Source of the DNA: a virus
Taxonomy: Duplodnaviria; Heunggongvirae; Uroviricota; Caudoviricetes
Reading direction: 5' to 3' (one strand)
Length of the DNA: 64,000 nt
IMG/VR virus record: IMGVR_UViG_2609459826_000002
The translations under genes were made by a program, and so were the position numbers. Every line of letters begins with the position of its first letter. Within the stretch, counting starts at the first letter, position 1. This document shows, piece after piece, positions 24,690 to 64,000 of this stretch. The notes beneath the pieces were generated by a model, which made no database searches, had not been told where the DNA came from, and saw only the letters and a program-made list of their open reading frames with translations.

Positions 24690-24704
24690 GGTTTTAATTT
24701 CGTT

Positions 24705-25754: not shown

Positions 25755-25762
25755 AGAACAAA

Positions 25763-29297: not shown

Positions 29298-29311
29298 CTT
29301 ATTGATTTAAA

Positions 29312-37200: not shown

Positions 37201-37357
37201 GTTGCTCCAGCATCACCGGGCGAAGAAACACATCATGAAAGGAAGCACGCAACGGGTTGTCGCCATCCGGCGCAATATCTGGCCCGTGCAGCACTTCCCA
37301 GCCCTGTACAGCAAACCATTGCAGGCACTGCTGTTCTAAATCGTCTTCGCTTAGCAT
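34226..37357 (-). CDS. hsdR: type I restriction enzyme R subunit (HsdR)
   Basis: 1043 aa; helicase motifs ([10 protein letters not shown] Walker [15 protein letters not shown] box); ATG with GAGGAAG RBS; shares 1 nt with upstream gene stop. Confidence 0.9.
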
Positions 37358-41654: not shown

Positions 41655-41994
41655 GAAAATCCTCAGGGGCGATCGCAGCGATAGTGCAAACATGCCTATC
41701 TTAAATTGGGTTTTGGAATGCTAATCGCAAAATGATACCCGGAATGACTAGGTTCATAAACGAGATAGCGCAAAGAAGTGGAAGATGGGCTATGGCTAAG
41801 TTGACATTAAGTTCCGGGCCTCAAGCAGACGTCTCAACGTTGTCTCGCGAATATGCCAAATTATTCCGCAGCAGATGCTCAGCCCTACGGATTGACAGTC
41901 TATATTACTCTCCAAACAGTCTTCATTTACCTTCGGTTTTACGATACATGTCTGGTCGGTTGATCTGCCAGACAAAGTCTGGTCGGTTCAACGG

Positions 41995-42040
41995 GAGATA
42001 TCTGAACATAAAACACTATCAGTAAGTTAGAGTCATTACC
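41995..42040 (+). mobile_element. IS1 terminal remnant (about 46 bp of an IS1 end)
   Basis: ATCTGAACATAAAACACTATCAGTAAGTTAGAGTCATTACC matches IS1 terminus with a few mismatches; separated by 7 bp (TCGAGAT) from an intact IS1. Confidence 0.5.
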
Positions 42041-42102
42041 TCGAGATGGTAATGGTGCCAACTTACTGATTTAGTGTATGATGGTGTTTTTGAGGTGCTC
42101 CA

Positions 42103-42378
42103 GTGGCTTCTGTTTCTATCAGCTGTCCCTCCTGCTCAGCTACTGACGGGGTGGTGCGTAACGGTAAAAGTACTGCCGGACATCAGCGCTATCTCTGCTC
42201 TCACTGCCGTAAAACATGGCAGCTACAGTTCACTTACACCGCTTCTCAACCCGGTACGCATCAGAAAATCATTGATATGGCCATGAATGGCGTTGGATGC
42301 CGGGCAACCGCCCGCATTATGGGCGTTGGCCTCAACACGATTTTACGTCACTTAAAAAACTCAGGCCGCAGTCGGTAA
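42103..42378 (+). CDS. insA: IS1 InsA
   Basis: 91 aa [23 protein letters not shown]... zinc-finger/HTH. Confidence 0.85.
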
Positions 42379-42800
42379 CCTCGCGCATACAGCCGGGCAG
42401 CGATGTGATTGTCTGCGCTGAAATGGACGAACAGTGGGGCTACGTCGGTGCTAAATCACGTCAGCGCTGGCTGTTTTACGCGTATGACAGGATACGGAGG
42501 ACGGTTGTGGCGCACGTCTTCGGTGAACGCACTCTGGCCACACTGGAGCGTCTTCTGAGCCTGCTGTCGGCCTTTGAGGTCGTGGTATGGATGACGGATG
42601 GCTGGCCGCTGTATGAATCCCGCCTGAAGGGAAAGCTGCACGTAATCAGCAAGCGATACACGCAGCGCATTGAGCGACATAACCTGAATCTGAGACAACA
42701 TCTGGCAAGGCTGGGACGGAAGTCACTGTCGTTCTCAAAATCGGTGGAGCTGCATGACAAAGTCATCGGGCATTATCTGAACATAAAACACTATCAGTAA
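42297..42800 (+). CDS. insB: IS1 InsB (expressed as InsAB' by frameshift)
   Basis: ORF in -1 frame overlapping insA 3' end. Confidence 0.8.
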
Positions 42801-42967
42801 GTTGGAGTCATTACCCGTCCTCCGGTATTGAAAGTTAATACACAAATCAGGATGATGGAGGCTCATACTGGTACAGCGCGACCACTTATGCAGGCGTCTC
42901 TGTCAGGTTTGTTGCCCGGATCACCCGCATCAGGGACAGGGCTGTTCAGTTATCCGCAGGAGAAAAT

Positions 42968-43978
42968 ATGTCACTCAAGGCTATCGCCGCCGAACTCGGG
43001 ATCTCTGTCACCACAGTCAGCCGGGCGCTTGGCGGATTTTCGGACGTTTCCGCTTCGACCCGTGCACGTGTAGAAGCGGAAGCTCGGCGTCGTGGTTATC
43101 GCCCGAATACCCTGGCAAGACGTCTCAAAACCGGTAAAACCGATGCGGTCGGCCTGGTCTTCCCTGAACATGCTGTACTGTTCAGCAGTAGTGTGTTTGT
43201 GGATATGGTCAGTTGTATCAGCCGGGAACTGGCCCGCCATGATATTGACTTACTGCTGATAGCCGATGATGAACGGGCTGACAGCCACAGCTATATGCGT
43301 CTGGTCGAAAGCCGCCGGGTTGATGCCCTTATCGTGGCGCACACGATGGATAATGACCCGCGTCTTACACACCTGCAGGAGGCCGGTATTCCGTTTCTGG
43401 CACTCGGTCAGGTGCCGTCCGGTCTTCCCTGTGCCTGGTTTGACTTTGATAACCATGCAGGAACCTGGCAGGCCACACAGCACCTGATTGCCCTGGGCCA
43501 TCAGCGAATTGCCCTGCTGAGTGAGGACAACTCCCGTGCCTATGTCACTGCACGACGTCAGGGATGGCGCGATGCCCTGAGTGAACATGGTCTGCCTGAG
43601 ACCTGGCTACGCCGGGTCTCTCCCACCCGACGCTCAGGTTTCCAGGCAGTGACTGAGTTAATGTCACTTCCGCTTCCCCCGACGGCCATTATTACCGACA
43701 GTGACCTGATCGGTGATGGCGCGGCCATGTCGCTGCAGTTATCCGGTCATCTGTCCGGAGAGGATGCCGTCTCTCTTGTGGTTTATGATGGTCTGCCGCA
43801 GGACAGTATTATTGAACAGGATGTGGCTGCAGTTCTTCAGTCAACACGACATCGCGTCGGTCGTCAGATTGCCGACATGATACGCCAGCTGGTCACGAAT
43901 GTTTCACCTGAAATGCTACAAGTACTCTGGCAGCCGGAATTTCATCCTGGCAAGACAACGCTTGCTCCCTCCGCCTGA
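42968..43978 (+). CDS. rafR: raffinose operon repressor RafR (LacI/GalR family)
   Basis: 336 aa; N-terminal HTH MSLKAIAAELGISVTTVSRALGG; precedes alpha-galactosidase and permease genes. Confidence 0.85.
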   Translation: MSLKAIAAELGISVTTVSRALGGFSDVSASTRARVEAEARRRGYRPNTLARRLKTGKTDAVGLVFPEHAVLFSSSVFVDMVSCISRELARHDIDLLLIADDERADSHSYMRLVESRRVDALIVAHTMDNDPRLTHLQEAGIPFLALGQVPSGLPCAWFDFDNHAGTWQATQHLIALGHQRIALLSEDNSRAYVTARRQGWRDALSEHGLPETWLRRVSPTRRSGFQAVTELMSLPLPPTAIITDSDLIGDGAAMSLQLSGHLSGEDAVSLVVYDGLPQDSIIEQDVAAVLQSTRHRVGRQIADMIRQLVTNVSPEMLQVLWQPEFHPGKTTLAPSA

Positions 43979-44071
43979 TTTTTAATCCCGCTCACAAATC
44001 CGAATCGTTTCGGTTGCTATCCGAAACGATTCGGATCAACAGTAAGGCATACCCGAAAACGGAGATGTCTT

Positions 44072-46198
44072 ATGGAACCGATGTACCGCAGGCTGACCAG
44101 TCCCCACTCAGACCTGATTATTAAAACCCACCCGTATGCAGAGATTGTCTGGTGGGGATCCACCCTGAAACACTTTTCACCGGATGATTGTATCAGCCTG
44201 GAAAGGCCGGTTGCGAATGGTCGTCTGGATACCGACACCCCACTGACGCTGATGGCCGAAAACGGCGCGGGACTTTTTGGCTCGCCGGGGCTGGAGGGAC
44301 ACCGCAACGGGCTGGATGCGTCCCCTGTGTTCCGTACCATCAGCGTGGTACAGGCCGGAGAATCACTCACCCTGACCAGTGAGGATGCAGTGGCGGGTCT
44401 GCGCATGGTCAGTGAACTGGTGCTGACATCGTCCGGTGTGCTGAAGATGCGTCATGCCCTGACGAACCTCCGTGAAGGGGACTGGCAGGTGAACCGCTTC
44501 GCCATCACGCTCCCTGTGGCTGAAAGGGCAGAGGAAGTCATGGCCTTCCACGGACGCTGGACTCGTGAGTTTCAGCCGCACAGGGTCCGTCTCACACATG
44601 ACGGTTTTGTGCTGGAGAACCGCCGGGGCCGCACGTCCCATGAGCATTTTCCGGCACTGATTGCCGGTGCCCCCGGTTTCTCAGAACAGCAGGGCGAGGT
44701 GTGGGCCGTACATCTGGGCTGGAGTGGCAACCATCGCATGAAATGTGAGGTCAAAACTGACGGACGGCGTTACCTCCAGGCGGAAGCACTGTGGATGCCC
44801 GGAGAAAAAGCCCTGAAGAAGGATGAGACCGTGTACACGCCGTGGCTGTACGCCAGCTATTCCCCGGAGGGGCTCAATGGTATGAGTCAGCAGTACCACC
44901 GTTTTCTGCGCGATGAAATCATCCGTTTTCCTGAGCAGAAACCCCGTCCGGTGCACCTCAATACCTGGGAAGGTATTTATTTTGACCACGACCCGAACTA
45001 CATCATGCAGATGGCCGGACGTGCGGCAGCGCTTGGCGTTGAACGTTTCATTATCGACGACGGCTGGTTTAAGGGGCGCAATGATGACCATGCGGCTCTG
45101 GGCGACTGGTATCTGGATGAACAGAAGTATCCGGACGGACTGATGCCGGTGATTAACCATGTGAAATCACTCGGCATGGAGTTCGGTATCTGGGTGGAAC
45201 CGGAAATGATTAACCCGGACTCTGACCTCTTTCGCCGCCATCCTGACTGGATACTGTCAATGCCGGGGTACACACAACCAACCGGGAGACATCAGTATGT
45301 TCTCAACCTGAACATTCCTGAGGCCTTTGCTTACATTTATGAACGCTGTTTATGGCTGCTGGGCGAACACCCAGTTGACTATGTGAAATGGGACATGAAC
45401 CGCGAGCTGGTCCAGGCCGGGCATGAAGGTCGGGCGGCGGCGGACGCGCAGACCCGTCAGTTTTACCGGCTGCTGGATCTCCTGCGCGAACGTTTTCCCC
45501 GTGTTGAGTTTGAGTCCTGCGCTTCCGGCGGTGGACGTATCGACTTTGAGGTTCTGACCCGCACGCACCGCTTCTGGGCTTCTGACAACAATGACGCCCT
45601 GGAGCGCTGCACCATACAGCGTGGCATGAGTTACTTTTTCCCGCCGGAGGTTATGGGGGCACACATCGGTCATCATCGCTGCCATGCCACCTTCCGGCAG
45701 CACAGCATTGCCTTTCGCGGTCTGACGGCCCTGTTCGGTCATATGGGACTGGAGCTGGATCCGGTAACGGCCGGAGAAGAGGAATCCGCCGGTTACCGCC
45801 GCTATGCCTCGCTCTACAAAGAATGGCGGCAGCTTATCCACACGGGCACCCTATGGCGGGGGGATATGCCGGATGCGGCGACACAGGTGCAGGGGGGGGT
45901 CAGCCCGGATCAGTCGCAGGCGCTCTTCCTGGTGAGCCAGCTTGCCATGCCGGATCACACCCTGCCGGGTGCTCTACGTTTTCCGGGGCTGGCACCACAG
46001 GCCCGTTACCGGCTTCGTGTTGTTGACCATCCGGATATTCAGCTGGTCGGTGAAGGCGGGCATACCATGCGCAGGCTGCCCGGCTGGATGAACCAGACCT
46101 CCGACATCAGTGGGGAATGGCTGGCGCAGGCCGGTATTCAGCTTCCCGTACTGGATCCGGAAAGCGCCATGCTGATTGCCCTTGAACGTTTGGCATAA
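44072..46198 (+). CDS. rafA: alpha-galactosidase RafA (GH36)
   Basis: 708 aa; GH36 signature regions (KWDMNR..., CASGGGR). Confidence 0.9.
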   Translation: MEPMYRRLTSPHSDLIIKTHPYAEIVWWGSTLKHFSPDDCISLERPVANGRLDTDTPLTLMAENGAGLFGSPGLEGHRNGLDASPVFRTISVVQAGESLTLTSEDAVAGLRMVSELVLTSSGVLKMRHALTNLREGDWQVNRFAITLPVAERAEEVMAFHGRWTREFQPHRVRLTHDGFVLENRRGRTSHEHFPALIAGAPGFSEQQGEVWAVHLGWSGNHRMKCEVKTDGRRYLQAEALWMPGEKALKKDETVYTPWLYASYSPEGLNGMSQQYHRFLRDEIIRFPEQKPRPVHLNTWEGIYFDHDPNYIMQMAGRAAALGVERFIIDDGWFKGRNDDHAALGDWYLDEQKYPDGLMPVINHVKSLGMEFGIWVEPEMINPDSDLFRRHPDWILSMPGYTQPTGRHQYVLNLNIPEAFAYIYERCLWLLGEHPVDYVKWDMNRELVQAGHEGRAAADAQTRQFYRLLDLLRERFPRVEFESCASGGGRIDFEVLTRTHRFWASDNNDALERCTIQRGMSYFFPPEVMGAHIGHHRCHATFRQHSIAFRGLTALFGHMGLELDPVTAGEEESAGYRRYASLYKEWRQLIHTGTLWRGDMPDAATQVQGGVSPDQSQALFLVSQLAMPDHTLPGALRFPGLAPQARYRLRVVDHPDIQLVGEGGHTMRRLPGWMNQTSDISGEWLAQAGIQLPVLDPESAMLIALERLA

Positions 46199-46252
46199 AA
46201 GGACCGGAGCCGGTCACGGCTCCCTGCACTCAGTCCCGTGAGGATAACAATA

Positions 46253-47530
46253 ATGAATACTGTCAGTACTCATAAAAACCCCGATTTCTGGATATTTGGT
46301 CTGTTCTTTTTTCTCTACTTTTTCATCATGGCAACCTGTTTCCCGTTTCTGCCCGTCTGGCTGTCAGACATTGTGGGGCTGAGTAAAACGGATACCGGGA
46401 TTGTTTTTTCATGCCTCTCCCTGTTTGCCATCAGCTTCCAGCCGCTGCTGGGGGTCATCTCAGACCGTCTTGGCCTGAAAAAACACCTGATGTGGATCAT
46501 CAGCCTGCTGCTGGTCCTGTTTGCACCGTTCTTTCTGTACGTTTTTGCGCCGCTGCTGCGGTTCAACATCTGGGCCGGAGCACTGAGCGGCGGGATTTTT
46601 ATCGGCTTCGTTTTTTCTGCGGGAGCCGGTGCCATCGAAGCCTATATTGAACGTGTCAGCCGCAGCAGCGGATTTGAATACGGTAAGGCCCGGATGTTCG
46701 GCTGTCTGGGCTGGGCGCTGTGTGCCACCACGGCAGGGCTGCTTTTCAACGTGGATCCGTCCCTGGTATTCTGGATGGGGTCCGGCTGCGCATTGCTGCT
46801 GGTCCTTCTGGTGGCGCTGGCGCGTCCCGGAACCAGTCAGACAGCGATGGTCATGAATGCGCTGGGTGCCAACTCGCCCGTGATTTCCGCCGGAATGGTG
46901 TTCAGTCTGTTTCGTATGCGTCAGATGTGGATGTTCGTGCTTTACATGATTGGGGTGGCCTGCGTCTATGACGTGTTTGACCAGCAGTTTGCCACGTTCT
47001 TCCGTGCATTTTTTGACACGCCGCAGGCGGGGATCCGGGCATTTGGTTTTGCCACCACGGCTGGCGAGATTTGCAATGCCATCATCATGTTCTGCTCCCC
47101 CTGGATAATCAGCCGCATTGGTGCCAAAAACACACTGCTTGTCGCGGGTCTGATTATGACCATCCGCATCACAGGGTCGGCCTTTGCCACCACGGCTACT
47201 GAAGTGGTGAGCCTGAAAATGCTGCATGCCCTTGAAGTCCCATTCCTGCTGGTTGGTGCGTTCAAGTATATCACCGGCGTGTTTGATACCCGGCTGTCGG
47301 CCACCATTTATCTGATTGGCTTTCAGTTCTCCAAACAACTGGCGGCGATATTCCTCTCAACCTTTGCAGGTCACCTGTATGACCGCATGGGGTTCCAGAA
47401 CACCTATCTGGTTCTGGGCGGTATTGTCCTTGCGGTCACCGTGTTATCGGCTTTCACCCTGAGCAGTACCCGTAAAACGGCTGCCCCGTCAGCAGAAACC
47501 GCTACAGCACAGACGGAGGTTCGCTTATGA
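46253..47530 (+). CDS. rafB: raffinose permease RafB (LacY-family MFS symporter)
   Basis: Strong similarity to LacY along whole length; ATG 46253 with GAGGA RBS. Confidence 0.85.
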   Translation: MNTVSTHKNPDFWIFGLFFFLYFFIMATCFPFLPVWLSDIVGLSKTDTGIVFSCLSLFAISFQPLLGVISDRLGLKKHLMWIISLLLVLFAPFFLYVFAPLLRFNIWAGALSGGIFIGFVFSAGAGAIEAYIERVSRSSGFEYGKARMFGCLGWALCATTAGLLFNVDPSLVFWMGSGCALLLVLLVALARPGTSQTAMVMNALGANSPVISAGMVFSLFRMRQMWMFVLYMIGVACVYDVFDQQFATFFRAFFDTPQAGIRAFGFATTAGEICNAIIMFCSPWIISRIGAKNTLLVAGLIMTIRITGSAFATTATEVVSLKMLHALEVPFLLVGAFKYITGVFDTRLSATIYLIGFQFSKQLAAIFLSTFAGHLYDRMGFQNTYLVLGGIVLAVTVLSAFTLSSTRKTAAPSAETATAQTEVRL

Positions 47531-48957
47531 AACAGCGTCTTGCCTCTGCACAGGTTGCACTTGATACACTCCGCGCCCGTCGTGGTGATACCTGGTACCC
47601 GGTTTTTCATCTGGCTCCACCTGCCGGATGGATGAATGATCCGAACGGGCTTATTTATTTCAGCGGTCGCTATCACGCATTCTTTCAGCACCATCCGGCA
47701 AGTGAACATCAGGGGCCGATGCACTGGGGACATGCCACCAGTCCGGACATGCTGCACTGGCAGCATGAGCCGGTTGCGCTGGCACCCGGTGATGAATATG
47801 ACCGGGATGGCTGTTTTTCCGGCAGCGCAGTGGACGACAACGGCGTGCTGTCGCTTATCTACACCGGTCATCTCTGTCTGGAGGATCGGGGGGATGACAG
47901 CATCATCCGCGAAGTCCAGTGTCTGGCAACCAGCCGTGACGGCATTCACTTTGAGAAGCAGGGCTGCGTGCTGACGCCACCGGAAGGCATCATGCATTTC
48001 CGTGACCCGAAGGTCTGGCGGGAAGGGGGATACTGGTGGATGGTTATCGGCGCGCGGGATACCTCTGACACCGGTCAGGTGCTGCTGTATCGCGGCACAT
48101 CCCTGCGGGACTGGCGCCAGGAACGGGTTCTAGCGCAGTCGGCAGCCGGAGAAAGCTATATGTGGGAATGTCCGGACTTTTTCCGCTGTGGCGACCATCA
48201 CTGGCTGATGTTCTCCCCGCAGGGGATGACGCCCGGCGGATACCGGTTCCGCAACCGCTTTCAGAGCGGAGTTTTACCGGGTCACTGGCAGCCGGGGGCC
48301 GCCTTTGCCCTGAGCGGGGCATTTGAAGAACTGGATCACGGTCATGATTTTTATGCCCCGCAGTCCCTGGTCGCGGAGGACGGACGGCGCATCATCATGG
48401 CCTGGATGAATATGTGGGACTCCCCGATGCCTACAAAGCGTGAGGCCTGGGCCGGATGTCTGACCCTGCCGAGGGAACTTTTTGAACGCCATGGTCGTCT
48501 GTGTCAGCGTCCGGTTCGCGAAGCCGAATCCCTTCGCGGGACGTGCCAGCCGTTACACCCTGTAAGGCTCAGTGGCACGCAGTTGCTGGCTGAGGACGCA
48601 CAGGCCGTGGAACTGGTGCTGACGTGGCATACCCTCGACAGTCAGGCAGAGCATTACGGCATCCACCTGGGAGACGGGCTCCGGCTGTATGTGGATAACC
48701 AGGCAGGACGGCTGGTGCTTTGGCGTCACTACCCGGATGAGGGGCTGGACGGTTACCGCAGTATCGCGCTGCCTGGCGCAGAATATCTGACGCTACGGGT
48801 TTTCCTGGACCGTTCATCGGTGGAAGTGTTCGTTAACGATGGCGATGCCACCCTGTCCAGCCGTATTTACCCGCAGCCCGGAACCCGCCGGTTGTCGCTA
48901 TATGCAGCTCACGGCGAGGCTGTGCTGACGGACGGCTCACTGTGGACGCTGGCCTGA
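47527..48957 (+). CDS. rafD: raffinose invertase RafD (GH32 beta-fructofuranosidase)
   Basis: 476 aa; GH32 motifs WMNDPNG, FRDP, EC; overlaps rafB stop. Confidence 0.85.
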   Translation: MKQRLASAQVALDTLRARRGDTWYPVFHLAPPAGWMNDPNGLIYFSGRYHAFFQHHPASEHQGPMHWGHATSPDMLHWQHEPVALAPGDEYDRDGCFSGSAVDDNGVLSLIYTGHLCLEDRGDDSIIREVQCLATSRDGIHFEKQGCVLTPPEGIMHFRDPKVWREGGYWWMVIGARDTSDTGQVLLYRGTSLRDWRQERVLAQSAAGESYMWECPDFFRCGDHHWLMFSPQGMTPGGYRFRNRFQSGVLPGHWQPGAAFALSGAFEELDHGHDFYAPQSLVAEDGRRIIMAWMNMWDSPMPTKREAWAGCLTLPRELFERHGRLCQRPVREAESLRGTCQPLHPVRLSGTQLLAEDAQAVELVLTWHTLDSQAEHYGIHLGDGLRLYVDNQAGRLVLWRHYPDEGLDGYRSIALPGAEYLTLRVFLDRSSVEVFVNDGDATLSSRIYPQPGTRRLSLYAAHGEAVLTDGSLWTLA

Positions 48958-48966
48958 AATAATTCC

Positions 48967-48997
48967 ACTGCCGTCGGTGACGGCAGTACTTTCGGTT
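48967..48997 (+). terminator. terminator-like hairpin after rafD
   Basis: 9-bp stem ACTGCCGTC/GACGGCAGT followed by ACTTTCGGTT. Confidence 0.4.
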
Positions 48998-49020
48998 CAC
49001 CCGTAATGAAGGAAAGCACA

Positions 49021-49536
49021 ATGGGATTACTGGGCAGGATTAAACAACTGATAAGTGAAAATGAGAAACCGGCGGAAGTCACCCGCGTGATGGCACCGCT
49101 GTCCGGTGAAATTGTCCCTCTGGACACGGTTCCGGATGCTGTGTTTGCCGGGAAAATAGTGGGGGATGGTATTGCTATCCGTCCTTCCGGCGGCGATACC
49201 TTGATGGCTCCTGTCAGCGGCACTATCGGTAAAATACTGGAGACAAACCACGCGTTTTCCATCCGCACCGACAGTGGCACTGAACTGTTCGTGCACTTCG
49301 GTATTAACACAGTTGACCTCAGGGGAGAGGGTTTCCGGCGTATTGCCCAGGAAGGCCAGCTGATCAGCACCGGTGACCCCGTCATCGGGTTTGACCTTGC
49401 GTTACTTCAGCAGAAAGCACAGTCCACGCTGACACCGGTGATTGTGGCGGACTCTGACCGTGTCCAGGAGATAACCCTGTTCTCCGGCCCGGTCATCGCC
49501 GGAGAAACACCGGTTTTTGATATCAGCAGCCAGTAA
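49021..49536 (+). CDS. PTS glucose-type EIIA (Crr-like) paralog
   Basis: 171 aa from ATG 49021 (AAGGAAAG RBS); close match to IIA-Glc pattern (APLSGEIVPLDTVPDAVFA.KIVGDGIAI.P...GTIGKILETNHAFSI..DSGTELFVHFGI). Confidence 0.8.
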   Translation: MGLLGRIKQLISENEKPAEVTRVMAPLSGEIVPLDTVPDAVFAGKIVGDGIAIRPSGGDTLMAPVSGTIGKILETNHAFSIRTDSGTELFVHFGINTVDLRGEGFRRIAQEGQLISTGDPVIGFDLALLQQKAQSTLTPVIVADSDRVQEITLFSGPVIAGETPVFDISSQ

Positions 49537-49549
49537 GCGCCATGAGTGA

Positions 49550-50509
<960 letters not shown>

Positions 50510-50745
50510 ACACTAACGCTCCCGGTGTACCGGGAGCGTTGCCGGTCATTGTCCCGTAAATGAAAGCGTTGTTCATCAATAGGAATTTAAACCCCAAAAA
50601 GATTAAAAAAACACCTGAAAAAGGGCACTTTCTCAGCATCGTCACACATGCCATAACTTCGACGTCATCAATTAAATGGACTTCATTGATTGATACCGGG
50701 TATCGTGACGGGAGCCTGTTTAGGATTCTGTGTAAATGCCTTTTC

Positions 50746-51538
50746 TCAGAAGTGACCGTCCAGGCGGTCACCGAACTCGATAATAAAGCGGCTCATTGCC
50801 ATTCGCCAGTCCTTCAACGGCATCGTCCATTTCGGGGACGCAGACTGGATTGCCAGCCACACCACTTTATTCACCGAGTCGTCTGTCGGGAACACTTTAC
50901 GCTTTTTGATCGCATGGCGGATCACGCTGTTTAGCGACTCGATGGCATTCGTCGTATAGATCACTTTGCGGATGTCCGTTGGATAAGCGAAGAACGTGGC
51001 AAGATTCGGCCAGTTAGCCTGCCAGCTTCGGCTTATCTGAGGATAGCGACTGTCCCAGGCCGCAGCGAACGCTTCCAGTGCCTGCTGACCTGCCTCTTCC
51101 GTGGGAGCTTGATAAATCGCTTTCAGGTCGCGAGTGACGGCCTTGTAGTCCTTCCATGACACGAAGCGCAGGCTGTTGCGCACCATATGCACGATGCATA
51201 ACTGGATGCGGGCCTTCGGATATACTGTGTTGATGGCATCCGGGAAGCCTTTCAGGCCATCCACACAGGCGATGAGGATATCGTTCAGACCGCGGTTTTT
51301 CAGTTCAGTCAGCACATTGAGCCAGAACTTCGCCCCTTCATTTTCGGCCAGCCACATACCCAGCAGTTCCTTCTGACCTTCGATATTGATGCCCAGTGCC
51401 AGGAACACCGATTTGTTGATGACGCGACTGTCCTGCCGAACTTTCAGGACGATACAGTCAAGATAAACAATGGGGTAAACAGCATCCAGTGGTCTGTTTT
51501 GCCATTCTACAACCTGCTCCATCACGGCATCGGTGACC
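50746..51538 (-). pseudogene. IS256-family transposase, N-terminally truncated by IS3-family insertion
   Basis: C-terminal ~260 aa of mutator-type transposase; reading frame runs into the IS end at 51539. Confidence 0.7.
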
Positions 51539-51592
51539 TGAACCGCCCCGGGAATCCTGGAGACTAAACTCCCTGAGAAAGAGGTAAACAGG

Positions 51593-51919
51593 ATGACTAA
51601 AAATACACGTTTTTCCCCCGAGGTCCGTCAACGGGCAGTTCGTATGGTTCTGGAAAGTCAGGGCGAATATGACTCACAATGGGCGGCAATTTGTTCCATT
51701 GCCCCAAAGATTGGCTGTACACCAGAGACTCTGCGTGTGTGGGTTCGTCAGCATGAGCGGGATACCGGGAGTGGTGATGGTGGACTCACCACCGCTGAAC
51801 GTCAGCGTCTGAAAGAGCTGGAACGTGAAAATCGTGAACTGCGCCGCAGTAACGATATCCTTCGCCAGGCTTCCGCTTATTTTGCGAAGGCGGAGTTCGA
51901 CCGCCTCTGGAAAAAATAA
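51593..51919 (+). CDS. IS3-family transposase OrfA (IS629-like)
   Basis: 108 aa HTH/leucine-zipper OrfA; A6 frameshift window at orfA/orfB junction. Confidence 0.8.
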
Positions 51920-52333
51920 TGCCGCTGCTGGATAAGCTGCGTGAGCAGTACGGGGTCGGACCGGTATGCAGTGAACTGCATATTGCCCCGTCAACGTATT
52001 ACCACTGTCAGCAACAGCGACATCATCCTGATAAACGCAGTGCCCGTGCTCAGCGCGATGACTGGCTGAAGAGAGAGATACAGCGCGTATACGATGAAAA
52101 TCATCAGGTGTACGGTGTGCGTAAAGTCTGGCGCCAGTTGTTACGCGAAGGTATCAGGGTGGCCAGATGTACAGTGGCGCGCCTCATGGCGGTTATGGGA
52201 CTTGCCGGTGTTCTCCGGGGTAAAAAGGTCCGTACTACCGTCAGCCGGAAAGCCGTTTCCGCAGGCGACCGCGTAAACCGTCAGTTCGTGGCAGAACGTC
52301 CTGACCAGCTGTGGGTGGCTGATTTTACTTACG
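51919..52333 (+). pseudogene. IS3-family transposase OrfB, 5' segment (interrupted)
   Basis: Homology to OrfB up to ...QLWVADFTY then intron 5' end GTGTG. Confidence 0.6.
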
Positions 52334-54603: not shown

Positions 54604-54835
54604 TCTGGACAGGCAAGCGTTGGGCTTACCTTGCTGTTGTTCTCGATCTGTTCGCAAGGAAACCTGAGGGTTGGGCAATGTCATTCTCACCGGACAGCAA
54701 GCTGACATCAAAGCGCTGGAAATTGCGTGGGAAGCTTGCGGTAAACCCGCCGGAGTGATGTTCCACAGTGACAGTAATAATGCCGGTGTCAGTCTTTACC
54801 ACCACTCAGTTTGCCGTTTAACCCGATTGGTGTGA
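54604..54835 (+). pseudogene. IS3-family transposase OrfB, downstream segment (frameshifted, truncated)
   Basis: WTGKRWAYLAVVLDLFARK...GWAMS then frameshift ...GKPAGVMFHSD; truncated before scrR. Confidence 0.5.
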
Positions 54836-54946
54836 TTACTGATGCAGTGAAGACCTTTCCGCATCACATCACTACAAATATTGATTTTTAATTGTTGGAT
54901 TCGCACCAGATTTCACCTCTGTAGGGTATTCAAAAATGCTCAGTTA

Positions 54947-55951
54947 TTACTGATGCCTAAACTGCAGCGTTGCGGGCAGGTAGCGTTGTAGCGTTTCGGG
55001 CGTATCGCCCTCGATCAATTGGCTTATCAGATCATAGCAGTGCCAGGCCAACTGGCGGTTATCCTGCTGTACGGTATCGATACGCAGCGACAGCGAATCA
55101 TAAAGATAGTGATCGTCAAAGCTCGTCAGATGGATATCTGAGTCGAGTAAATGGTGCTGGCTCATATAGCGCAGTACCCCTTCGAGCAGTCCACAGGCGG
55201 CAGTGAACAGCGCCTTAGGCGGCCGCCCAAGTCGCGCGCAGAGTGCGGCGAACATCTCATAGCCTGAGCTCGGGTGGTAGTTACCGTTAATCACCCATTC
55301 CGGGCGCAGTGCAATACCCGCCTGAGCCAAACCCTGCGTGAAGCCGGTCAGACGATCGCGTGAAGGCGACAGACGCGACTGACCGCCTAAAAACCAGAAC
55401 TCATCGCTATGCTTAGGTGCAATGCGGGAAATCAGTTCCGCCGTTGGGGTAATCGAATCAGTCATCACCAGCGGCAGCAGGCTTTCATTAGGACAACGGT
55501 CAAACAGCACTACTGGCAGTTGTTGGCTGAGCTTAAGATAGTCGGCATCGTTGTGCATACATGAAGCGACGATCAGACCGTCAACCTGGCGGGAAATCAT
55601 GTTATTGACCACCACGCTCTCCTGACCGGGGTTTTCATCAGTACAAGAGATCAATAGCTGGACGCCTGCTTCGCGGCACAGCATTTCCAGCTCATGTGAA
55701 AAGACCGCAAAGCCGTGGTTGGTGATCTCCGGCACCACCAGTCCGATGGTGTGGCTGCGGTTGTCGCGCAGCGAGCGGGCGTGAATGCTTGGCTGATAGT
55801 GCTGCTCACGGGCAATCGCCAGTACTCGCTCACGCGTTTCCTGCGCCACACGCAGCTCCTTACCACGACCGTTCAGTACTAGGCTGGCGGTCGCTTTTGA
55901 GACGCCAGCCTGTTCGGCGATATCTTTAATGGTTACGCGTTTAGTTTTCAT
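54947..55951 (-). CDS. scrR: sucrose operon repressor ScrR (LacI family)
   Basis: ATG 55951; [31 protein letters not shown]. Confidence 0.85.
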
Positions 55952-55980
55952 TACGACGCCATGAGCTTGAGGCAAAACGC

Positions 55981-57381
55981 TTATTCTACCATGCAAGTTC
56001 GCAGCGGCCAGTAGCAGAATGCGTCCGGTGTGATGCCAGAGAACATTAGCTGCCCTGAACAGGCCGGGAAGTAGCGGCAGCTCATCACTCCTTCGCCGCC
56101 GTTGATGAAAATCTCCACGCTAGACTGGTCGATGAAAATATGCAGCGAGCGGACGTCTCCGCGCCAGTAACGATAATGCTTCTCGTCGCTGGCCAGACTG
56201 GGTCGGGCCAGGCGGATCCCGCTGGCATCGCGTTCAAGGATTAATGCGCCGTCAAAATCGAGGCTCAAAATATCGTCCCCAGTGGTTTGTAGAACGATTT
56301 CCATCGGTGCCAGCGGCAGGGAGTTCCCTGCCCAGCCGTGCGCTTCGCCGCGCAGGGCGCTCAGCTCTCGTAGAGGACGTTGGTATAGCTGACCATCGAT
56401 AAACTCCAGCTCACGCAGGCAGGTCATCTGATGGATCCAGCCGTTGGTGAGGGTCGGTTGAAGCATCTCTTCGCCCTCCGGCACGCCCATCCAGCCGACC
56501 AGCAGACGGCGGCCATCACTGGTAAGCATGGTTTGCGGGGCGTAGAACTCAAACCCTGCGTCCAATTCGTGCAGTTCGCCATGCCCGAAGGCCGCGCGGT
56601 GGTAGTCGAAATCGCCGCTCATCCACACTGCCGGGTAGGTGTTGAGATAGCGCTCTTTCTCACGAGGCACGCCCTGCGGGCAGCAAATCAGGACATGCTG
56701 GTCGCCGAGGGCAAACAGGTCCGGGCATTCCCACATATAGCCCGCGTCGTCCAGGCCATTGATGCCATAACCGGCGATTTCGCCCTGACTCGTCCACTCA
56801 TGAAGGTCCGCTGAGCTGAATAACAACACCTTGCCACGCTTTTGCAAATCCTGTGCGCCCAGCACCATGTACCAGCGACCTTCGTGCTGCCAGACTTTCG
56901 GGTCACGCACGTGGCCGGTATAGCCCTCCGGCAGCGGTAATACCGGGCCGAGTTTGGTAAACGTGCCGTCGGCATTTTCCGTCGCCAGGCACTGCCACGC
57001 GGTTCGGCTGCCGTCGTCAAATTTTACGTTGCCGGTATAGCACAGGGTGAGCGTGCCCTGACTATCCACGGCGCTTCCGGAGTAGCAGCCGTTGCGGTCA
57101 TACTCTTCATCCGGCATGAGCGCGATCGGCTCATGTTGCCAGTGCAGCAGGTCGGCAGAGCTCCAGTGCCCCCAGCACTTGAACTTATGATCGCAGGCGA
57201 GCGGGTTCCACTGATAAAACAGGTGATAACGTCCGGCAAATTCAATAAAGCCGTTGGGATCGTTCATCAGCCCGGTCACCGGCGCATGGTGCCAGCGGGG
57301 ATAGTGGCTGTCGGCCAGCGCGCGCGGCTGGCCCTGCATAACAGCCTGCAAAATCGCAGGCAGGCGTGATGGATGTGACAT
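55981..57381 (-). CDS. scrB: sucrose-6-phosphate hydrolase ScrB (GH32)
   Basis: 466 aa; GH32 motifs LMNDPNG, VRDP, WECPD; TAATG overlap with scrA. Confidence 0.85.
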
Positions 57382-58751
57382 TATTCAGCGTCCGTTTTGT
57401 ATTTCAGTACCAGGGAGACGACAAAGGCGACGCCAAAGGCGATAACCATCCCGATAATGTAGTTCAGCAGCGAGCTGGCCTGCACGATAGCCATGCCAGG
57501 GATAGCCGTCAGGCCCACCGCGGTCATGTAAACATGCATGGATACCACCCACGCGCCGCCCACCGCGCCGCCAATCAGGGCTGCGATAAACGGTTTTACA
57601 AAGCGTAAGTTAATACCAAAAATCGCCGCTTCGGTGATGCCGAGCATGGCAGAAAACGCCGAGGGCAGGGTAATGGCTTTGATTTTGGCATCTTTCGTTT
57701 TGAACCACACCGCCAGACAAGCACCGCCCTGAGCGACGTTGGCCATCGCCCAAATCGGCAGCAGGAAGTTGACGCCGATGGATGGGTTGCCCAGCAGTCC
57801 CGCTTCGATGGCGTGGAAGCTGTGGTGAATACCGGTAATGACGATAACCGAATAGAGACCGCCAAACAGCAGTCCGGCCAGCCAACCGGCGTGGGTAATC
57901 AGGGTGCTAAGGACAAACGAAATACCGTCGCCAAGCGCGCGACCAGCCGGGCCGATAATCAGCAGGGCGATAAAACCGGAAATGATCACCGTCAGGAACG
58001 GCGTCAGGATCAGATCCAGTGCATCGGGGATCACGCGACGCAGCTGTTTCTCAACGATGCTCATAAACCACACCGCCAGCAGCACCGGGAACACCGTGCC
58101 CTGATAGCCGATCATGGCAATCTCAAGGCCGAAGAAGTTCATGGTGTGGAAACCGGCGGCCACACCCCAGGCGTTGGTGAGCGCCGGGTGAGTCAGGATG
58201 CCGCCAAGCGTCGCGCCAAGATAAGGATTACCACCGAACTCGCGGGCGGCGGTGAAGCCAATCAGGATCGGCAGAATAATAAACGCCGCTGAGCTGCACA
58301 TATCCAGCATGATGTAGATGGCGTTACCCGGGTCGACCCAGCCGTACGTTTTAACCATCCCCAGAAGGCCCATCAACAGGCCGGAGGCGACGATAGCCGG
58401 GATGATCGGCACAAAGATGTTCGACAACAGGCGGGCAATGCGCTGGAAAGGATTCAGTTTTTTCGCCGCAATGTCGGCAGCTTCCGATTTGCTGGATTCG
58501 CCAATCCCTGCCGCCTGGATAAAGGCGGCGTAGACTTTGTTCACCACCCCGGTGCCGAAGATAATCTGCATCTGTCCGGCGTTACGGAAACAGCCCTTCA
58601 CCCCATCAATTTTGCCGATGGCCTGCTGATCGGCCAGTGAGTCATCGACCAGCACCAGGCGCAGGCGTGTGGCACAGTGCGCGGCGCTGGCGATATTTTC
58701 CTTGCCTCCCAGAAGCGGAAGTAGCGAGCGGGAAATCTGTTCAAAATCCAT
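57381..58751 (-). CDS. scrA: PTS sucrose-specific EIIBC ScrA
   Basis: 456 aa; N-terminal IIB domain with Cys (AAHCATRLRL) then multi-TM IIC domain. Confidence 0.9.
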   Translation of the reverse strand: MDFEQISRSLLPLLGGKENIASAAHCATRLRLVLVDDSLADQQAIGKIDGVKGCFRNAGQMQIIFGTGVVNKVYAAFIQAAGIGESSKSEAADIAAKKLNPFQRIARLLSNIFVPIIPAIVASGLLMGLLGMVKTYGWVDPGNAIYIMLDMCSSAAFIILPILIGFTAAREFGGNPYLGATLGGILTHPALTNAWGVAAGFHTMNFFGLEIAMIGYQGTVFPVLLAVWFMSIVEKQLRRVIPDALDLILTPFLTVIISGFIALLIIGPAGRALGDGISFVLSTLITHAGWLAGLLFGGLYSVIVITGIHHSFHAIEAGLLGNPSIGVNFLLPIWAMANVAQGGACLAVWFKTKDAKIKAITLPSAFSAMLGITEAAIFGINLRFVKPFIAALIGGAVGGAWVVSMHVYMTAVGLTAIPGMAIVQASSLLNYIIGMVIAFGVAFVVSLVLKYKTDAE

Positions 58752-58888
58752 AGTACCCTCTGAATGCGTATTGATTTTCGAGTTGTCGTCCCGTGGTAGC
58801 CGGAGCGCATTCTCTTCGTTGTTATTGTGTCCGGGGCGACGAAACGTATTTTGTCGCCCCGGCGGTTACTGTCGCCAGGTGTTAACCA

Positions 58889-60522
<1,634 letters not shown>

Positions 60523-60571
60523 TAAGTGTGATGGATGCAACAAAGTGGACCGCGTACGACGGTATTTAGGA

Positions 60572-61495
60572 TCAAATCTGGCGGTGTAGATCGCGCTGGT
60601 ATGGCAGGGCAGTCATCGCGCCTTTCGCCAGGGTTGCCAGGGCACCGCAGGTTTGCGCCAGAGCGAGCGTTGGCTCCAGGGCATTGATATCCGCCGGCAT
60701 CCCGTTGGCAGCAAGGCTGGCAAGCAGTCCGGCGACAAACGCATCGCCCGCACCGGTGGTATCCACGCTGACAACCGGTTTAGCGCTGAAATGGATAAAC
60801 TGCTGCTGGAATGCGGCGATGACGCCCGCTTTACCCTGAGTCACCAGCAGTAATTCAGGCTGATAACGCTCAGTGATGCTGGCGATCCCCTGCGCGATAT
60901 CATTACTCCCGCTGATGAGTATCAGCTCTTCTTCGGACAGTTTCACCACGTTCGCCAGACGCAGGGCGCGGTCGAGACAGGCGTGCAACAGGTTCTGATC
61001 TTGCCAGAGATCCAGGCGGATATTAGGGTCAAAGCTCACCCGGCCACCGGCACGTTTGATGTTCTCCATAGCCGCGAAGGTAGCACTGCGGCTGGGCTCG
61101 GCGCTGAGCGCGATGGAGCAGATGTGCAACCACTGTCCGGCGGCAAACTGTGGCAGGTCTTCTTCAGCCAGGAACAGGTCAGCGCTGGGGCGTACCATAA
61201 AGGTAAAGGTGCGTTCACCTTGGTCATCAAGGTCGACCACCACAGTGGACGTGCGGTGATGATCGTCAAGATACATATGGCTGACGTCGACCTGCTCCTG
61301 TTGCAGGGTATGACGCATGTAGCGGCCAAACGGGTCACCGCCGACGCGGCCGATAAATCCGCTGTTGCCGCCAAGGCGGGCAACCCCTACCGCCACGTTA
61401 GCCGGCGCGCCTCCAGGGCACTGTAGCAAGCGCCCTTCACTCTCCGGTAGCAGGTCCACCACTGCGTCGCCCAGAACCCAAACTTTTGCTTTCAT
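60572..61495 (-). CDS. scrK: fructokinase ScrK (PfkB family)
   Basis: ATG 61495 with GGAGGG RBS; PfkB motifs (GGAPANVA, DTTGAGDAF). Confidence 0.85.
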   Translation of the reverse strand: MKAKVWVLGDAVVDLLPESEGRLLQCPGGAPANVAVGVARLGGNSGFIGRVGGDPFGRYMRHTLQQEQVDVSHMYLDDHHRTSTVVVDLDDQGERTFTFMVRPSADLFLAEEDLPQFAAGQWLHICSIALSAEPSRSATFAAMENIKRAGGRVSFDPNIRLDLWQDQNLLHACLDRALRLANVVKLSEEELILISGSNDIAQGIASITERYQPELLLVTQGKAGVIAAFQQQFIHFSAKPVVSVDTTGAGDAFVAGLLASLAANGMPADINALEPTLALAQTCGALATLAKGAMTALPYQRDLHRQI

Positions 61496-61522
61496 GCTAA
61501 AACCCTCCAAGGCTAAACTTAA

Positions 61523-61536
61523 CTAAACCGGTTTAG
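61523..61536. promoter_or_regulatory. scrK operator (same palindrome as at scrY)
   Basis: CTAAACCGGTTTAG 28 nt upstream of scrK start. Confidence 0.5.
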
Positions 61537-61740
61537 CATATTAAATCACAGTGAATGAGTGGGGGAAAGTTCCAGCCGGAAAAGCACTGCTCAGGGCATA
61601 AAAACGTGAGCCGCCTTACGAAATAGAATTGATTCGACAGCTGTGAAGACTTACGTCCTGGACACAAATGGATCCTGGATAAATTACCATGCAACTTGAT
61701 GAAATTATCATGTTTTATCTTATTTACAGATAAATCAAAG

Positions 61741-62082
61741 GGCTTTTAACACCACACTTCTTGGCATAATGGTTAAGTGTAGTAATGCTCGCTCTGGATG
61801 GGTTTGCTTCTATGCTGCGCAGGTATTTGTAAGAAATACCCATTCTACTGGCGAGTTGTTGTCGCATCAGGCCAGCGAAACTGCGCAATTTCATCAGCGT
61901 TTCTGGAGGGTTTCCTTTAAAACTTCATCGACAAAACCGCTTTTTACCGTAGATACAGTAAGTGCCTCTTCTCTGCCATTATCCCAGCATCCAAGGTTAC
62001 CGGGTTCTGATGTAGTCTGCCGATATGCAAGAAATGCAACGGCATCATGCTGGTTATGATGCTGTTTAATCTTCATTGTCAC
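61741..62082 (-). pseudogene. frameshifted HTH (XRE-like) gene
   Basis: 62-aa ORF ends ...LQKR stop; downstream +1 frame continues MKLRSFAGLMRQQLASRMGISYKYLRSIEANPSRASITTLNHYAKKCGVKS (HTH); single-base frameshift would join them. Confidence 0.35.
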
Positions 62083-62403
62083 ATGGACTATTCAGGGAGC
62101 GACAAGCGCTCCCACATGAAAACAGAACCACTCGTTTCATTTACGTGCTTCCTCAAAAGTAATCTCATACCCAATACTTCTGATTTAGTAGGGTTCTGAT
62201 CATATCATGCAGCTCGATTGCGCTCAATTTGACGGTTTTCATCTTTACACAATGCTCGGTTATGATACTTTGTGATAGGCATGACAAGATCTGGCCGTAA
62301 TTTTTTAGAAGTGATTTTCCCCGCCACTTCACGGGACAGCATACATCCGGATAAAACCGGTAACAGGAAAGGCTCCACGCTGCATACGGAGGAAACAGAA
62401 TTA

Positions 62404-62712
62404 ATGAATGATAAATTGCCGCCCTGCGCTGATACCAGGGTGGAACGTGTCCGTCTTAAAGATGGGGATTACTTTTTCCCTGCTGAACCCGCCATAAAAG
62501 CGGATTCTTTGCGGACAAAATCGCTCCTTCATCGTTTTAACCACACCGATCCTGCTCATATTGATTCCCGCCTGCTACTGATGAAAGAGTTGCTGCCTGA
62601 ATGTGGGGAAGGGGTATCTGTCACCACGTCTTTCCACTGCAGCAGGGGGTATAACATTCGTAAGCGTCGTCTCAGCACCGTCTGGCAGATCCTGAAATTC
62701 CTGAGAGGATAG
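62404..62712 (+). pseudogene. truncated hexapeptide-repeat O-acetyltransferase (Maa/LacA-like N-terminal part)
   Basis: SLLHRFNHTDPAHIDSRLLLMKELLPECGEGVSVTTSFHCSRGYNI resembles N-terminus of maltose/galactoside acetyltransferases; frame ends after about 100 aa at a palindromic junction. Confidence 0.5.
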
Positions 62713-62740
62713 TGGACACCAAATATGGTGGACACTATCC

Positions 62741-63262
62741 ATGAAATCATTAACCACAGTGCGTAAAAAAAGCCCTAATTATCCCGTTGAGTTCAAAATC
62801 AAAATGGTTGAACTCTCGCATCGACCAGATATCCGAGTCTTTGCGTTTGCCAGCGAGGATAAGGAGTACCAACCGTTACTCGATGATATTCTGGATGGTC
62901 CAATGGTTGGGCGTTTTGATACTGAGGAAGCCGGAAAGGCTTTGATCGATGGTGGATTGATTGAGCGTTTGATGTCAACTATCATGCCCTTTATCACTTC
63001 AGAGGCCCCTCTACCCGATACGCATCTACGTCGGGAAACAACCTGGTATTATCCACTGGAAGCTATTCGCGAAACTGTTGTAAATGCACTGGCTCATCGT
63101 GACTGGACACGCTTTGTTGAGATAGAGATTGGCTTGTATAGCAATCGATTTGAAGTTATTAGCCCAGGGGCGCTGAATAATTCGATGTCGATTGAAAAGA
63201 TGGTTACAGGTCAGCGATCACCACGCAATACGATTATTATGGAAGTCTTACGTGATTATGGT
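62741..63262 (+). pseudogene. mosaic remnant: IS OrfA-like N-terminus fused to a RecG-like (HATPase_c_4-type) C-terminal fragment
   Basis: KSPNYPVEFKIKMVEL resembles IS transposase OrfA HTH start; remainder (WYYPLEAIRETVVNALAHRDW...RNTIIMEVLRDYG) resembles C-terminus of divergent-AAA/RecG-like regulators; reading frame runs into IS1. Confidence 0.4.
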
Positions 63263-64000
63263 GGTGATGCTGCCAACTTACTGATTTAGTGTATGATGGT
63301 GTTTTTGAGGTGCTCCAGTGGCTTCTGTTTCTATCAGCTGTCCCTCCTGTTCAGCTACTGACGGGGTGGTGCGTAACGGCAAAAGCACCGCCGGACATCA
63401 GCGCTATCTCTGCTCTCACTGCCGTAAAACATGGCAACTGCAGTTCACTTACACCGCTTCTCAACCCGGTACGCACCAGAAAATCATTGATATGGCCATG
63501 AATGGCGTTGGATGCCGGGCAACTGCCCGCATTATGGGCGTTGGCCTCAACACGATTTTCCGCCATTTAAAAAACTCAGGCCGCAGTCGGTAACCTCGCG
63601 CATACAGCCGGGCAGTGACGTCATCGTCTGCGCGGAAATGGACGAACAGTGGGGATACGTCGGGGCTAAATCGCGCCAGCGCTGGCTGTTTTACGCGTAT
63701 GACAGGCTCCGGAAGACGGTTGTTGCGCACGTATTCGGTGAACGCACTATGGCGACGCTGGGGCGTCTTATGAGCCTGCTGTCACCCTTTGACGTGGTGA
63801 TATGGATGACGGATGGCTGTCCGCTGTATGAATCCCGCCTGAAGGGAAAGCTGCACGTAATCAGCAAGCGATATACGCAGCGAATTGAGCGGCATAACCT
63901 GAATCTGAGGCAGCACCTGGCACGGCTGGGACGGAAGTCGCTGTCGTTCTCAAAATCGGTGGAGCTGCATGACAAAGTCATCGGGCATTATCTGAACATA
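63263..64000 (+). mobile_element. IS1 (second copy, same orientation; right end beyond window)
   Basis: Begins GGTGATGCTGCCAACTTACTGATTTAGTG; insA 63318-63593; insB runs to window edge. Confidence 0.9.
63318..63593 (+). CDS. insA: IS1 InsA
   Basis: 91 aa, same as copy 1 with few substitutions. Confidence 0.85.

Follow-up and report, generated by a model that had tools for sequence, protein, structure and literature searches.

The DNA analysed here, referred to as the window, is a stretch of 64,000 bp filed as a viral record (IMGVR_UViG_2609459826_000002). It corresponds to the last 64,000 bp of the draft contig JNPJ01000107.1 (GCA_000703665.1), window position 1 being position 4082 of the contig record and position 64000 its position 68081. 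Towards its right end two copies of the insertion sequence (IS) IS1, denoted IS1(L) and IS1(R), enclose genes for the utilization of raffinose (raf) and sucrose (scr), an arrangement that had been described in an original prediction as a unit resembling a composite transposon. The segment makes up the cargo region of an integrative island in the chromosome, and the host genome is probably Escherichia coli. The reading favoured in this work, to which we assign a probability of about 0.7, is that the IS1 bracket arose from separate IS1 events (insertion, adjacent deletion and inter-copy recombination) around a pre-existing mosaic. The features of the locus are given below; the loci used most often for comparison are those of E. 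coli ET776 (L001), CP66-6 (L002), plasmid pF1022-2 (L003) and E. coli ECONIH4 (L006), and IRL and IRR are the left and right inverted repeats of IS1.

41923-42000, minus strand: the last 78 nt only of a GNAT acetyltransferase gene; left outer flank, belonging to the type I restriction-modification (R-M) island
42001-42040, plus strand: right-end (IRR) remnant of an older IS1, its last 40 bp with one mismatch
42041-42047, no strand: 7-bp spacer (TCGAGAT, by direct reading) that separates the old IRR from the IRL of IS1(L)
42048-42815, plus strand: IS1(L), a non-IS1A/B isoform with intact insA, A6C motif and insB'
42968-43978, plus strand: rafR, LacI-family repressor (NCBIfam LacI-family matches; 99.9% DNA identity to ET776, CP66-6 and pF1022-2)
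44072-46198, plus strand: rafA, alpha-galactosidase, 708 aa (annotated in ET776, CP66-6, pF1022-2 and a further raf locus, L013; Pfam Melibiase/GH36)
46253-47530, plus strand: rafB, LacY-type oligosaccharide permease, 425 aa (TIGR00882, 673 bits; gene call in locus L026)
47527-48957, plus strand: rafD, GH32 invertase, 476 aa (TIGR01322 scrB_fam, 445 bits)
49021-49536, plus strand: crr-like gene for EIIA-Glc of the phosphotransferase system (PTS), 171 aa (NF006962, 235.7 bits, cut-off 212; crr in ET776, CP66-6 and pF1022-2)
49601-50509, plus strand: rafY', the C-terminal 302 codons of a LamB/ScrY-type glycoporin gene (homology to raf loci, CP66-6)
50746-51525, minus strand: IS1414 (IS256-family) transposase fragment (NF033543, 307 bits, profile positions 106-336 of 338; annotated in CP66-6 and L013)
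51541-52333, plus strand: 5' portion of an IS3-family element, the 5' exon (orfA, frameshift pseudoknot and the beginning of orfB; NF033516 matches)
52334-54605, plus strand: group II intron (ltrA at 53005-54513, TIGR04416, 340.9 bits; Rfam domains V-VI)
54606-54781, plus strand: truncated 3' part of the IS3-family element, the 3' exon, scr-module allele (DDE fragment in ET776 and ECONIH4)
54947-55951, minus strand: scrR (TIGR02417, 466 bits; equivalent to WP_003029591.1 in ET776 and ECONIH4)
55981-57381, minus strand: scrB, sucrose-6-phosphate hydrolase (TIGR01322, 575 bits)
57381-58751, minus strand: scrA, sucrose PTS EIIBC (TIGR01996, 653.7 bits)
58889-60406, minus strand: scrY, sucrose porin, 505 aa (LamB-family match; Pfam Sugarporin_N and LamB)
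60572-61495, minus strand: scrK, fructokinase, 307 aa (NF006957, 500 bits)
61724-61894, minus strand: short helix-turn-helix (HTH) open reading frame (ORF), scr-flank debris (gene calls and Pfam in loci L010 and L011)
62404-62712, plus strand: Mac-domain-only acetyltransferase fragment, scr-flank debris (gene calls in L010 and L011, Pfam; partial NCBIfam match, maltose O-acetyltransferase)
62741-63262, plus strand: gene for an 'ATP-binding protein' (HATPase_c_4), interrupted by IS1(R) after codon 174 of 218
63263-64000, plus strand: IS1(R), the first 738 of 768 bp, IS1B-like, cut by the end of the contig, which is also the end of the window

The description from which the prediction had started was confirmed. 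Two IS1 copies in the same orientation, one at 42048-42815 and one starting at 63263, were found by reading of the sequence, and the gene content (rafRABD, a crr-like gene, a porin fragment, IS and intron debris, scrKYABR) was recovered by family matches and gene calls. The starts of the IS1 copies are 21,215 bp apart and the cargo between them (42816-63262) measures 20,447 bp. IS1(L) is a complete element of 768 bp with the termini GGTAATGGTGCC... (IRL) and ...GAGTCATTACC (IRR), and its outer end, the IRL, is intact. Its frames are open (insA at 42103-42378, the A6C frameshift motif and insB' at 42297-42800) and its InsB' is identical to that of a widely multiplied isoform; from the frames and the motif it is predicted to encode an apparently functional transposase. 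IS1(R) opens with GGTGATGCTGCC... on the same strand as IS1(L). When the two were aligned, 46 of the 738 positions differed (93.8% identity). The differences were spread over almost the whole length, and the longest runs of perfect identity were 79, 60 and 53 bp. IS1(L) was 97.9% identical to a widespread isoform that shares its IRL (L017-L025), versus 94% for IS1A/B, and is itself a patchwork of isoform-specific bases; IS1(R) had three mismatches to an annotated IS1B copy (L004) and carried F81 in InsA. Judged by sequence, IS1(L) and IS1(R) are different isoforms and not copies of each other. F81 in InsA is linked to poorly transposing, non-consensus IS1 types, and IS1B-type copies have an extremely low transposition frequency (PMC12428005).

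IS1 makes target duplications of 8 or 9 bp (PMC12428005). No such duplication was found around IS1(L), of which the nine flanking bases, CCTCGAGAT on the left and CGTCCTCCG on the right, are unrelated; the 8-9 bp directly to its left read (C)CTCGAGAT. Further outwards on this side lies the 40-bp remnant of an older IS1, which shares the orientation of IS1(L), and then the truncated GNAT gene. The GNAT gene is complete in two islands that share the type I R-M system (L007, coding sequence at 17366-17827, and L008), and the homology to both stops at window position 42000 (L007 17443). Its join with the old IS1 end shows microhomology (CGGGAGATA, then TCTGAAC, versus CGGGCATTA, then TCTGAAC, in IS1). 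On the inner side, the raf loci of ET776, CP66-6 and pF1022-2 have a common native flank left of window position 42816. It reads ...GGTAATCAAAT followed directly by CGTCCTCCGG and leads to an IS3-family element; at this place the window has the IRR of IS1(L). Because the nine-base flanks are unrelated, and in view of this flank structure, the site of IS1(L) is read as the breakpoint of a multi-step rearrangement and not as a simple insertion site. The stretch 42001-42047 has the head-to-tail arrangement IRR-7 bp-IRL, which could be a relic of a tandem (head-to-tail) IS1 pair or of the junction of a re-inserted IS1 circle. IS1 circles have a short spacer.

The collections that were searched comprised 5,426 complete E. 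coli genomes, 72,556 plasmids (PLSDB), the GTDB species representatives and the JGI metagenomes, the latter two by exact-pattern scans. For the junction of remnant and spacer, AAGTTAGAGTCATTACCTCGAGAT, zero exact matches were obtained in the GTDB species-representative genomes. Among the E. coli genomes and PLSDB, matches of at least 80% to the left outer junction consisted of GNAT plus IS1 arranged otherwise, of which L014 and L015 were checked by BLAST. An exact-protein look-up of the ORF across the junction between the GNAT fragment and the IS1 remnant gave no record. The inner IS1 junction on the raf side occurred in none of the four collections, and that on the scr side (63262) in neither of the two in which it was searched, the complete E. 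coli genomes and the JGI metagenomes.

At the right boundary the IRR of IS1(R) would lie about 30 bp past the end of the contig; the assembly breaks at this repeat and the right outer flank is outside it. The bases to the left of IS1(R), the right inner flank, are GATTATGGT and form no duplication with the left inner flank CGTCCTCCG. In the case of a simple insertion, (G)ATTATGGT followed by TACGTTGATTTCAGGGGGATGGG, which is the remainder of the ATP-binding-protein gene in ECONIH4, is expected past the IRR. The intact gene of 218 codons is present beside the same scr locus in 14 complete E. coli genomes (ECONIH4 and 13 others). A fusion ORF of 182 aa that runs from the ATP-binding protein into IS1 (62741-63289) is on record in only five contigs, including one from an independent Logan run; the Logan contig ERR7734005_111, of 20,504 bp, has exactly the length of the span between the IS1 copies. 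In 13 genomes, of frog-farm and sediment isolates from Shantou and with closed genomes among them, the same gene contains, 185 bp further in (63077), an IS1 of the same orientation, which in most of these genomes is near-identical to IS1(R). In ES9 (NZ_CM184323.1, 824866-825481) the IS1 at the 63077 junction is of the IS1X2 type (96.9%), the relatives having an IS1B-type copy there; this is a case of isoform replacement at a fixed site. The pattern at 63077 fits an IS1-adjacent deletion that started from a window-like state, along with a replacement of the isoform through recombination between copies; both are ordinary IS1 behaviour. The first codons of the interrupted gene (MKSLTTVRKKSPNYPVEFKIKMVELS...) resemble the N-terminus of an IS3-family OrfA, and for the stretch 62646-62833 there are matches on more than 1,000 plasmids to DNA that carries the annotation 'transposase'. 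The gene into which IS1(R) is inserted therefore appears to be chimeric, with remains of an older IS as one part.

The cargo consists of two modules. In the raf module the genes rafR-rafA-rafB-rafD are full length, in the pRSD2-type order and equal in length to those of annotated loci. Raf-only loci match window 42816-51540 at about 99.7%, apart from one internal deletion of 2.15 kb in the window, by which two DUF2913 genes, a fructokinase-like gene and the 5' part of rafY are missing. Window 42816-49613 corresponds to positions 15465-22262 of the CP66-6 locus and window 49605-54768 to 24415-29579. The deletion junction at 49605-49613 (22254-22262 and 24415-24423 in CP66-6) shows microhomology over 8 of 9 bp, GGGCTGGTA versus GGGCGGGTA. 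What remains of the porin gene, rafY', is without a start or promoter, and the rafY of the pRSD2-type raf regulon, which is positioned downstream of rafRABD (PMC4809568; PMC12987596), is thus not complete here. rafY' is 71% identical to scrY, the two forming an inverted repeat. The ORF of 302 aa is common to a few other samples, and rafY has been associated with E. coli from the chicken gut (PMC12987596).

In the scr module scrK and scrYABR are likewise full length, with lengths equal to those in ET776 and ECONIH4. The products of scrA, scrB, scrK and scrR scored above the curated NCBIfam cut-offs; for scrY, whose LamB match fell below the cut-off, the identification is based on Pfam and on gene length. 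Each of the nine sugar genes agrees in length with its counterpart in annotated relatives. With all nine catabolic and regulatory genes at full length, the locus should confer the predicted use of raffinose, melibiose and sucrose. The scr-only locus of ECONIH4 matches window 52306-63262 at 99.8%. Citrobacter freundii-like scr loci have been horizontally transferred into rare non-B2 E. coli (PMC11251922). It was also considered whether plasmid scr loci are compact IS1-scr-IS1 transposons. This was rejected, since two such loci (L004 and L005) have a single IS1 beside scrR and another IS beside scrK; both IS1 queries from the window had matched one and the same plasmid IS1 copy. Scr loci beside a single IS1 are common on IncF plasmids.

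The two modules meet in an IS3-family element that is split by a group II intron. The intron is flanked by both halves of the element, and its reverse transcriptase/maturase ORF and catalytic domains V-VI are present (Rfam Intron_gpII, RF00029, at 54517-54603, 64.9 bits); the 5' exon contains an Rfam ALIL pseudoknot (51874-51990, 120.9 bits). Raf-type and scr-type modules both end in this same intron within the IS3-family element. For the 5' exon, counterparts occur only in loci of the raf type, and its identity to the three raf-only loci that were compared is about 94.5%. The 3' exon, compared over 54606-54768, shows one difference from scr-only ECONIH4 and more than 25 from raf-only CP66-6. 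The flank alleles are thus raf-type to the left of the intron and scr-type on the 3' exon and everything to its right. Since the 5' exon is of the raf type only and the sequence from the 3' exon rightward is of the scr type, the seam between raf and scr can be assigned to the shared intron (about 52334-54605) and not to IS1. On the evidence of the flank alleles, the most probable origin of the raf-scr fusion is homologous recombination between intron copies. In ES7 (L012, 10001-12300) an allele switch was found inside the same intron at about 53241. This second crossover marks the intron as a recurrent recombination site. Allele switches lie at different internal points of the intron in different genomes, and the intron apparently serves as portable homology by which island cargo is shuffled.

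Among the relatives of the locus some have raf-scr and others only raf or only scr, in each case at 99-99.9% identity and without the IS1 boundaries of the window. In ET776-type E. coli raf-scr is present at 99.9% with no left IS1, and the native raf flank runs past the point at which it is cut by IS1(L). That raf and scr travel as mobile modules, as the prediction had held, was borne out: the same DNA, at 97-99.9% identity, was found on plasmids and in several different chromosomal islands. The comparison with plasmid loci that it had proposed showed the modules to be shared, but no PLSDB plasmid had raf and scr together with the junctions of the window, and the two are joined at the intron, not at IS1. 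No record among the complete E. coli genomes or PLSDB plasmids covered at least 80% of the unit, and no second genomic context for the whole unit was found in the collections searched.

The events envisaged in the favoured reading are the following. A pRSD2-type module (rafRABD, the crr-like gene, two DUF2913 genes, a kinase gene, rafY, an IS1414 fragment and an intron-bearing IS3 element) and a C. freundii-type module (an intron-bearing IS3 element, scrRBAYK, the HTH fragment, the Mac fragment and the ATP-binding-protein gene), which circulated independently, would have been spliced in island cargo and then trimmed by insertion sequences. The splice would have occurred by homologous recombination within the shared intron (about 52334-54605). 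After the fusion, the 2.15-kb microhomology deletion would have taken the kinase gene of the raf module and most of rafY, functions that were presumably redundant with scrK and scrY 9 kb away. IS1(R) would have interrupted the ATP-binding-protein gene and IS1(L) would have replaced the native upstream flank of raf, thereby joining raf to the older IS1 end remnant and the truncated GNAT gene, so that each copy would mark a breakpoint. Separate IS1 events are preferred to a single compound insertion because the copies are unrelated isoforms, each at a breakpoint, and the raf-scr block is considered to predate the bracket because ET776-type genomes carry it without IS1(L) and with a longer native flank. 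Several points weigh against this reading. The Logan contig has exactly the inter-IS1 length, and both junctions are probably present in at least one further sample. The lack of a duplication at each arm is likewise expected of a compound element, and the missing duplication at IS1(L) is neutral in this respect. With the right outer flank outside the assembly, an 8-9-bp duplication around the whole unit is unreadable. As regards the splice, the differences within the intron are too few to place the crossover by single-nucleotide polymorphisms, and a raf-type parent of the fusion was not found, the 5' exon being only 94.5% identical to the three raf-only loci.

The prediction itself, that raf-scr was acquired or can move as an IS1 composite element, corresponds to a genuine compound transposon of about 21,983 bp that was inserted as a unit, in the manner of Tn9, next to the older IS1 remnant, and that can re-transpose through the action of IS1(L) InsAB' on the IRL of IS1(L) and the IRR of IS1(R). 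Its architecture stood up to analysis: the cargo is bracketed by IS1 copies in direct orientation, the ends and reading frames of IS1(L) are intact, neither arm has a target duplication of its own on the visible flanks, as a compound element predicts, and the fusion ORF at the right junction recurs in five contigs, one of exactly the inter-IS1 length. Acquisition as a unit was not supported. The arms are of different isoforms that are 93.8% identical, IS1(R) belongs with its InsA F81 to the IS1B-like type that transposes at extremely low frequency (PMC12428005), and none of the collections held a second context or these junctions elsewhere. Furthermore, the joint between raf and scr is an intron seam, and relatives without the IS1 boundaries of the window carry the module, those without IS1(L) having longer native flanks, from which the block is older than the bracket. 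We regard such a transposon as improbable, and a currently active, unnamed IS1 compound transposon of about 22 kb, by which raffinose and sucrose utilization would be moved jointly from one E. coli replicon to another, as slightly less probable still.

Entry at a resident IS1 would account for some of the same features. Raf-scr would then have arrived as a circle or plasmid segment with one IS1 and would have been integrated by homologous recombination or by IS1-mediated cointegration. This would agree with the direct repeats and with the lack of individual target duplications. The isoform patchwork of IS1(L) is what is expected after inter-copy recombination or conversion, an isoform swap at a fixed junction is seen in ES9, the older IS1 end 7 bp upstream indicates that the site hosted an IS1 before, and scr loci with a single IS1 are common on IncF plasmids. 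However, a replicative cointegrate gives identical IS1 copies, whereas these differ along almost their whole length, and the inner flanks GATTATGGT and CGTCCTCCG, which form no duplication, imply that the donor IS1 was not a simple insertion either. No PLSDB plasmid has raf and scr together with these junctions. This route is held to be unlikely. A partial assembly artefact, in which the IS1 at the contig end is a collapsed repeat that was wrongly attached, might be suspected because the window and a draft contig stop at exactly the same base, inside IS1(R). But the identical 182-aa fusion ORF in five contigs, including the independent Logan run, and the sister junction 185 bp away with a near-identical IS1 in closed genomes leave little room for it, and its probability is minimal. 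Separate IS1 events around an older raf-scr mosaic are the interpretation that is retained.

The directly repeated IS1 copies have a further consequence. It had been predicted that recombination between them would remove both operons, and this holds in principle: RecA-dependent recombination could delete the block or excise it as a circle of 21.2 kb, since the identity runs of 79, 60 and 53 bp are long enough for such exchange. The 6% divergence between the copies should lower its frequency. IS1-related large deletions do occur in clinical E. coli (PMC10569738).

As alluded to in the opening, the locus is part of an island, the backbone of which consists of an integrase gene, a gene of the Gp2 family and a type I R-M system that includes a DUF4268 gene and which is a common integrative island of E. 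coli. It lies in tandem with a lambdoid prophage that extends from window position 1 to about 29300 and of which the first 12.3 kb are 99.9% identical to a prophage in E. coli 2022CK-00450. The island integrase follows directly after that of the prophage, giving two back-to-back tyrosine recombinase genes (28134-29297 for the prophage and 29462-30850 for the island). ARAGORN found no tRNA genes anywhere in the window. The same tandem of prophage and island is present in ECONIH4, where the scr block stands directly after the Gp2-family gene (L006 20309-20452; window 33672) and in the orientation opposite to that in the window. Its ATP-binding-protein end faces Gp2 in ECONIH4 and points in the window away from the backbone, toward the right flank. 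In the type I R-M system (34226-41693) the DUF4268 gene lies between hsdR and hsdS. The hsdS region is variable, identity to L008 dropping to 83-88% or being lost between 37400 and 39950. The possibility that the type I R-M system adjacent to raf in CP66-6 is that of the window, which would imply an inversion, was rejected, as the two have no nucleotide similarity. The GC content is 57.2% for raf and 56.5% for scr, and that of the neighbouring prophage is 50.3%.

Taken as a whole, the locus represents a new arrangement of known parts: a lineage-specific mosaic of an ordinary kind, bounded by insertion sequences and composed of two mobile sugar modules that are well known. It documents the joining of raf and a C. 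freundii-type scr into one E. coli island block via a shared intron, with IS1 trimming the block and making it deletable; beyond bookkeeping at the strain level its importance is small. Raffinose and sucrose use are niche-relevant traits, and an excisable block for both sugars would explain unstable Raf+/Scr+ phenotypes in the lineage. For scans of draft genomes it gives a caution that an IS at a contig end cannot support the call of a compound transposon.

Among the IS1 compound transposons are Tn9 (IS1-cat-IS1, in direct repeat) and Tn1681. At the level of general architecture, the window resembles these in that non-IS cargo is enclosed by two directly oriented IS1 copies, the left one with intact ends and transposase frames. 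Unlike the Tn9 type, it has heterologous arms (93.8%) and a 20.4-kb cargo full of IS and intron debris, and it was found in one context. Raf/K88 plasmids may also carry IS1 direct repeats; a literature search for an IS1-flanked raf/K88 transposon and for the flanks of pRSD2 yielded nothing usable.

With the pRSD2-type raf module, for which Aslanidis (1989) and Ulmke (1997) are the sources cited in PMC4809568 and PMC12987596, the window shares the rafRABD order, at 99.7-99.9% identity to plasmid and chromosomal loci of E. coli (ET776, CP66-6, pF1022-2 and L013), as well as the crr-like gene, the IS1414 fragment and the intron-bearing IS3 element. It differs in its upstream flank, which is IS1(L), in the 2.15-kb deletion and in the 5' part of the IS3 element, which is a different allele (94.5%). 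The scr half is of the C. freundii-like type: it is 99.8% identical to the chromosomal locus of ECONIH4, flanking debris included, and 97.1-97.6% to IncF plasmid copies, and its proteins bear the accessions of that locus. Unlike it, the scr genes of the window are fused to raf via the intron and have their distal flanking gene cut by IS1. As in the scr regulon of pUR400 and Klebsiella pneumoniae, scrK and scrYABR are complete. Finally, both halves are 99.9% identical to the raf-scr islands of the ET776/ES10 type from frog-farm E. coli (NZ_CP100909.1 and others), which have the same 3' intron, the same junction from 3' exon to scrR, and an IS1B-like copy in the same gene and orientation. In contrast to the window, these islands are without the raf-side IS1 and without the segment corresponding to 49592-54101, have their IS1 at 63077 and lie in a different surrounding island.

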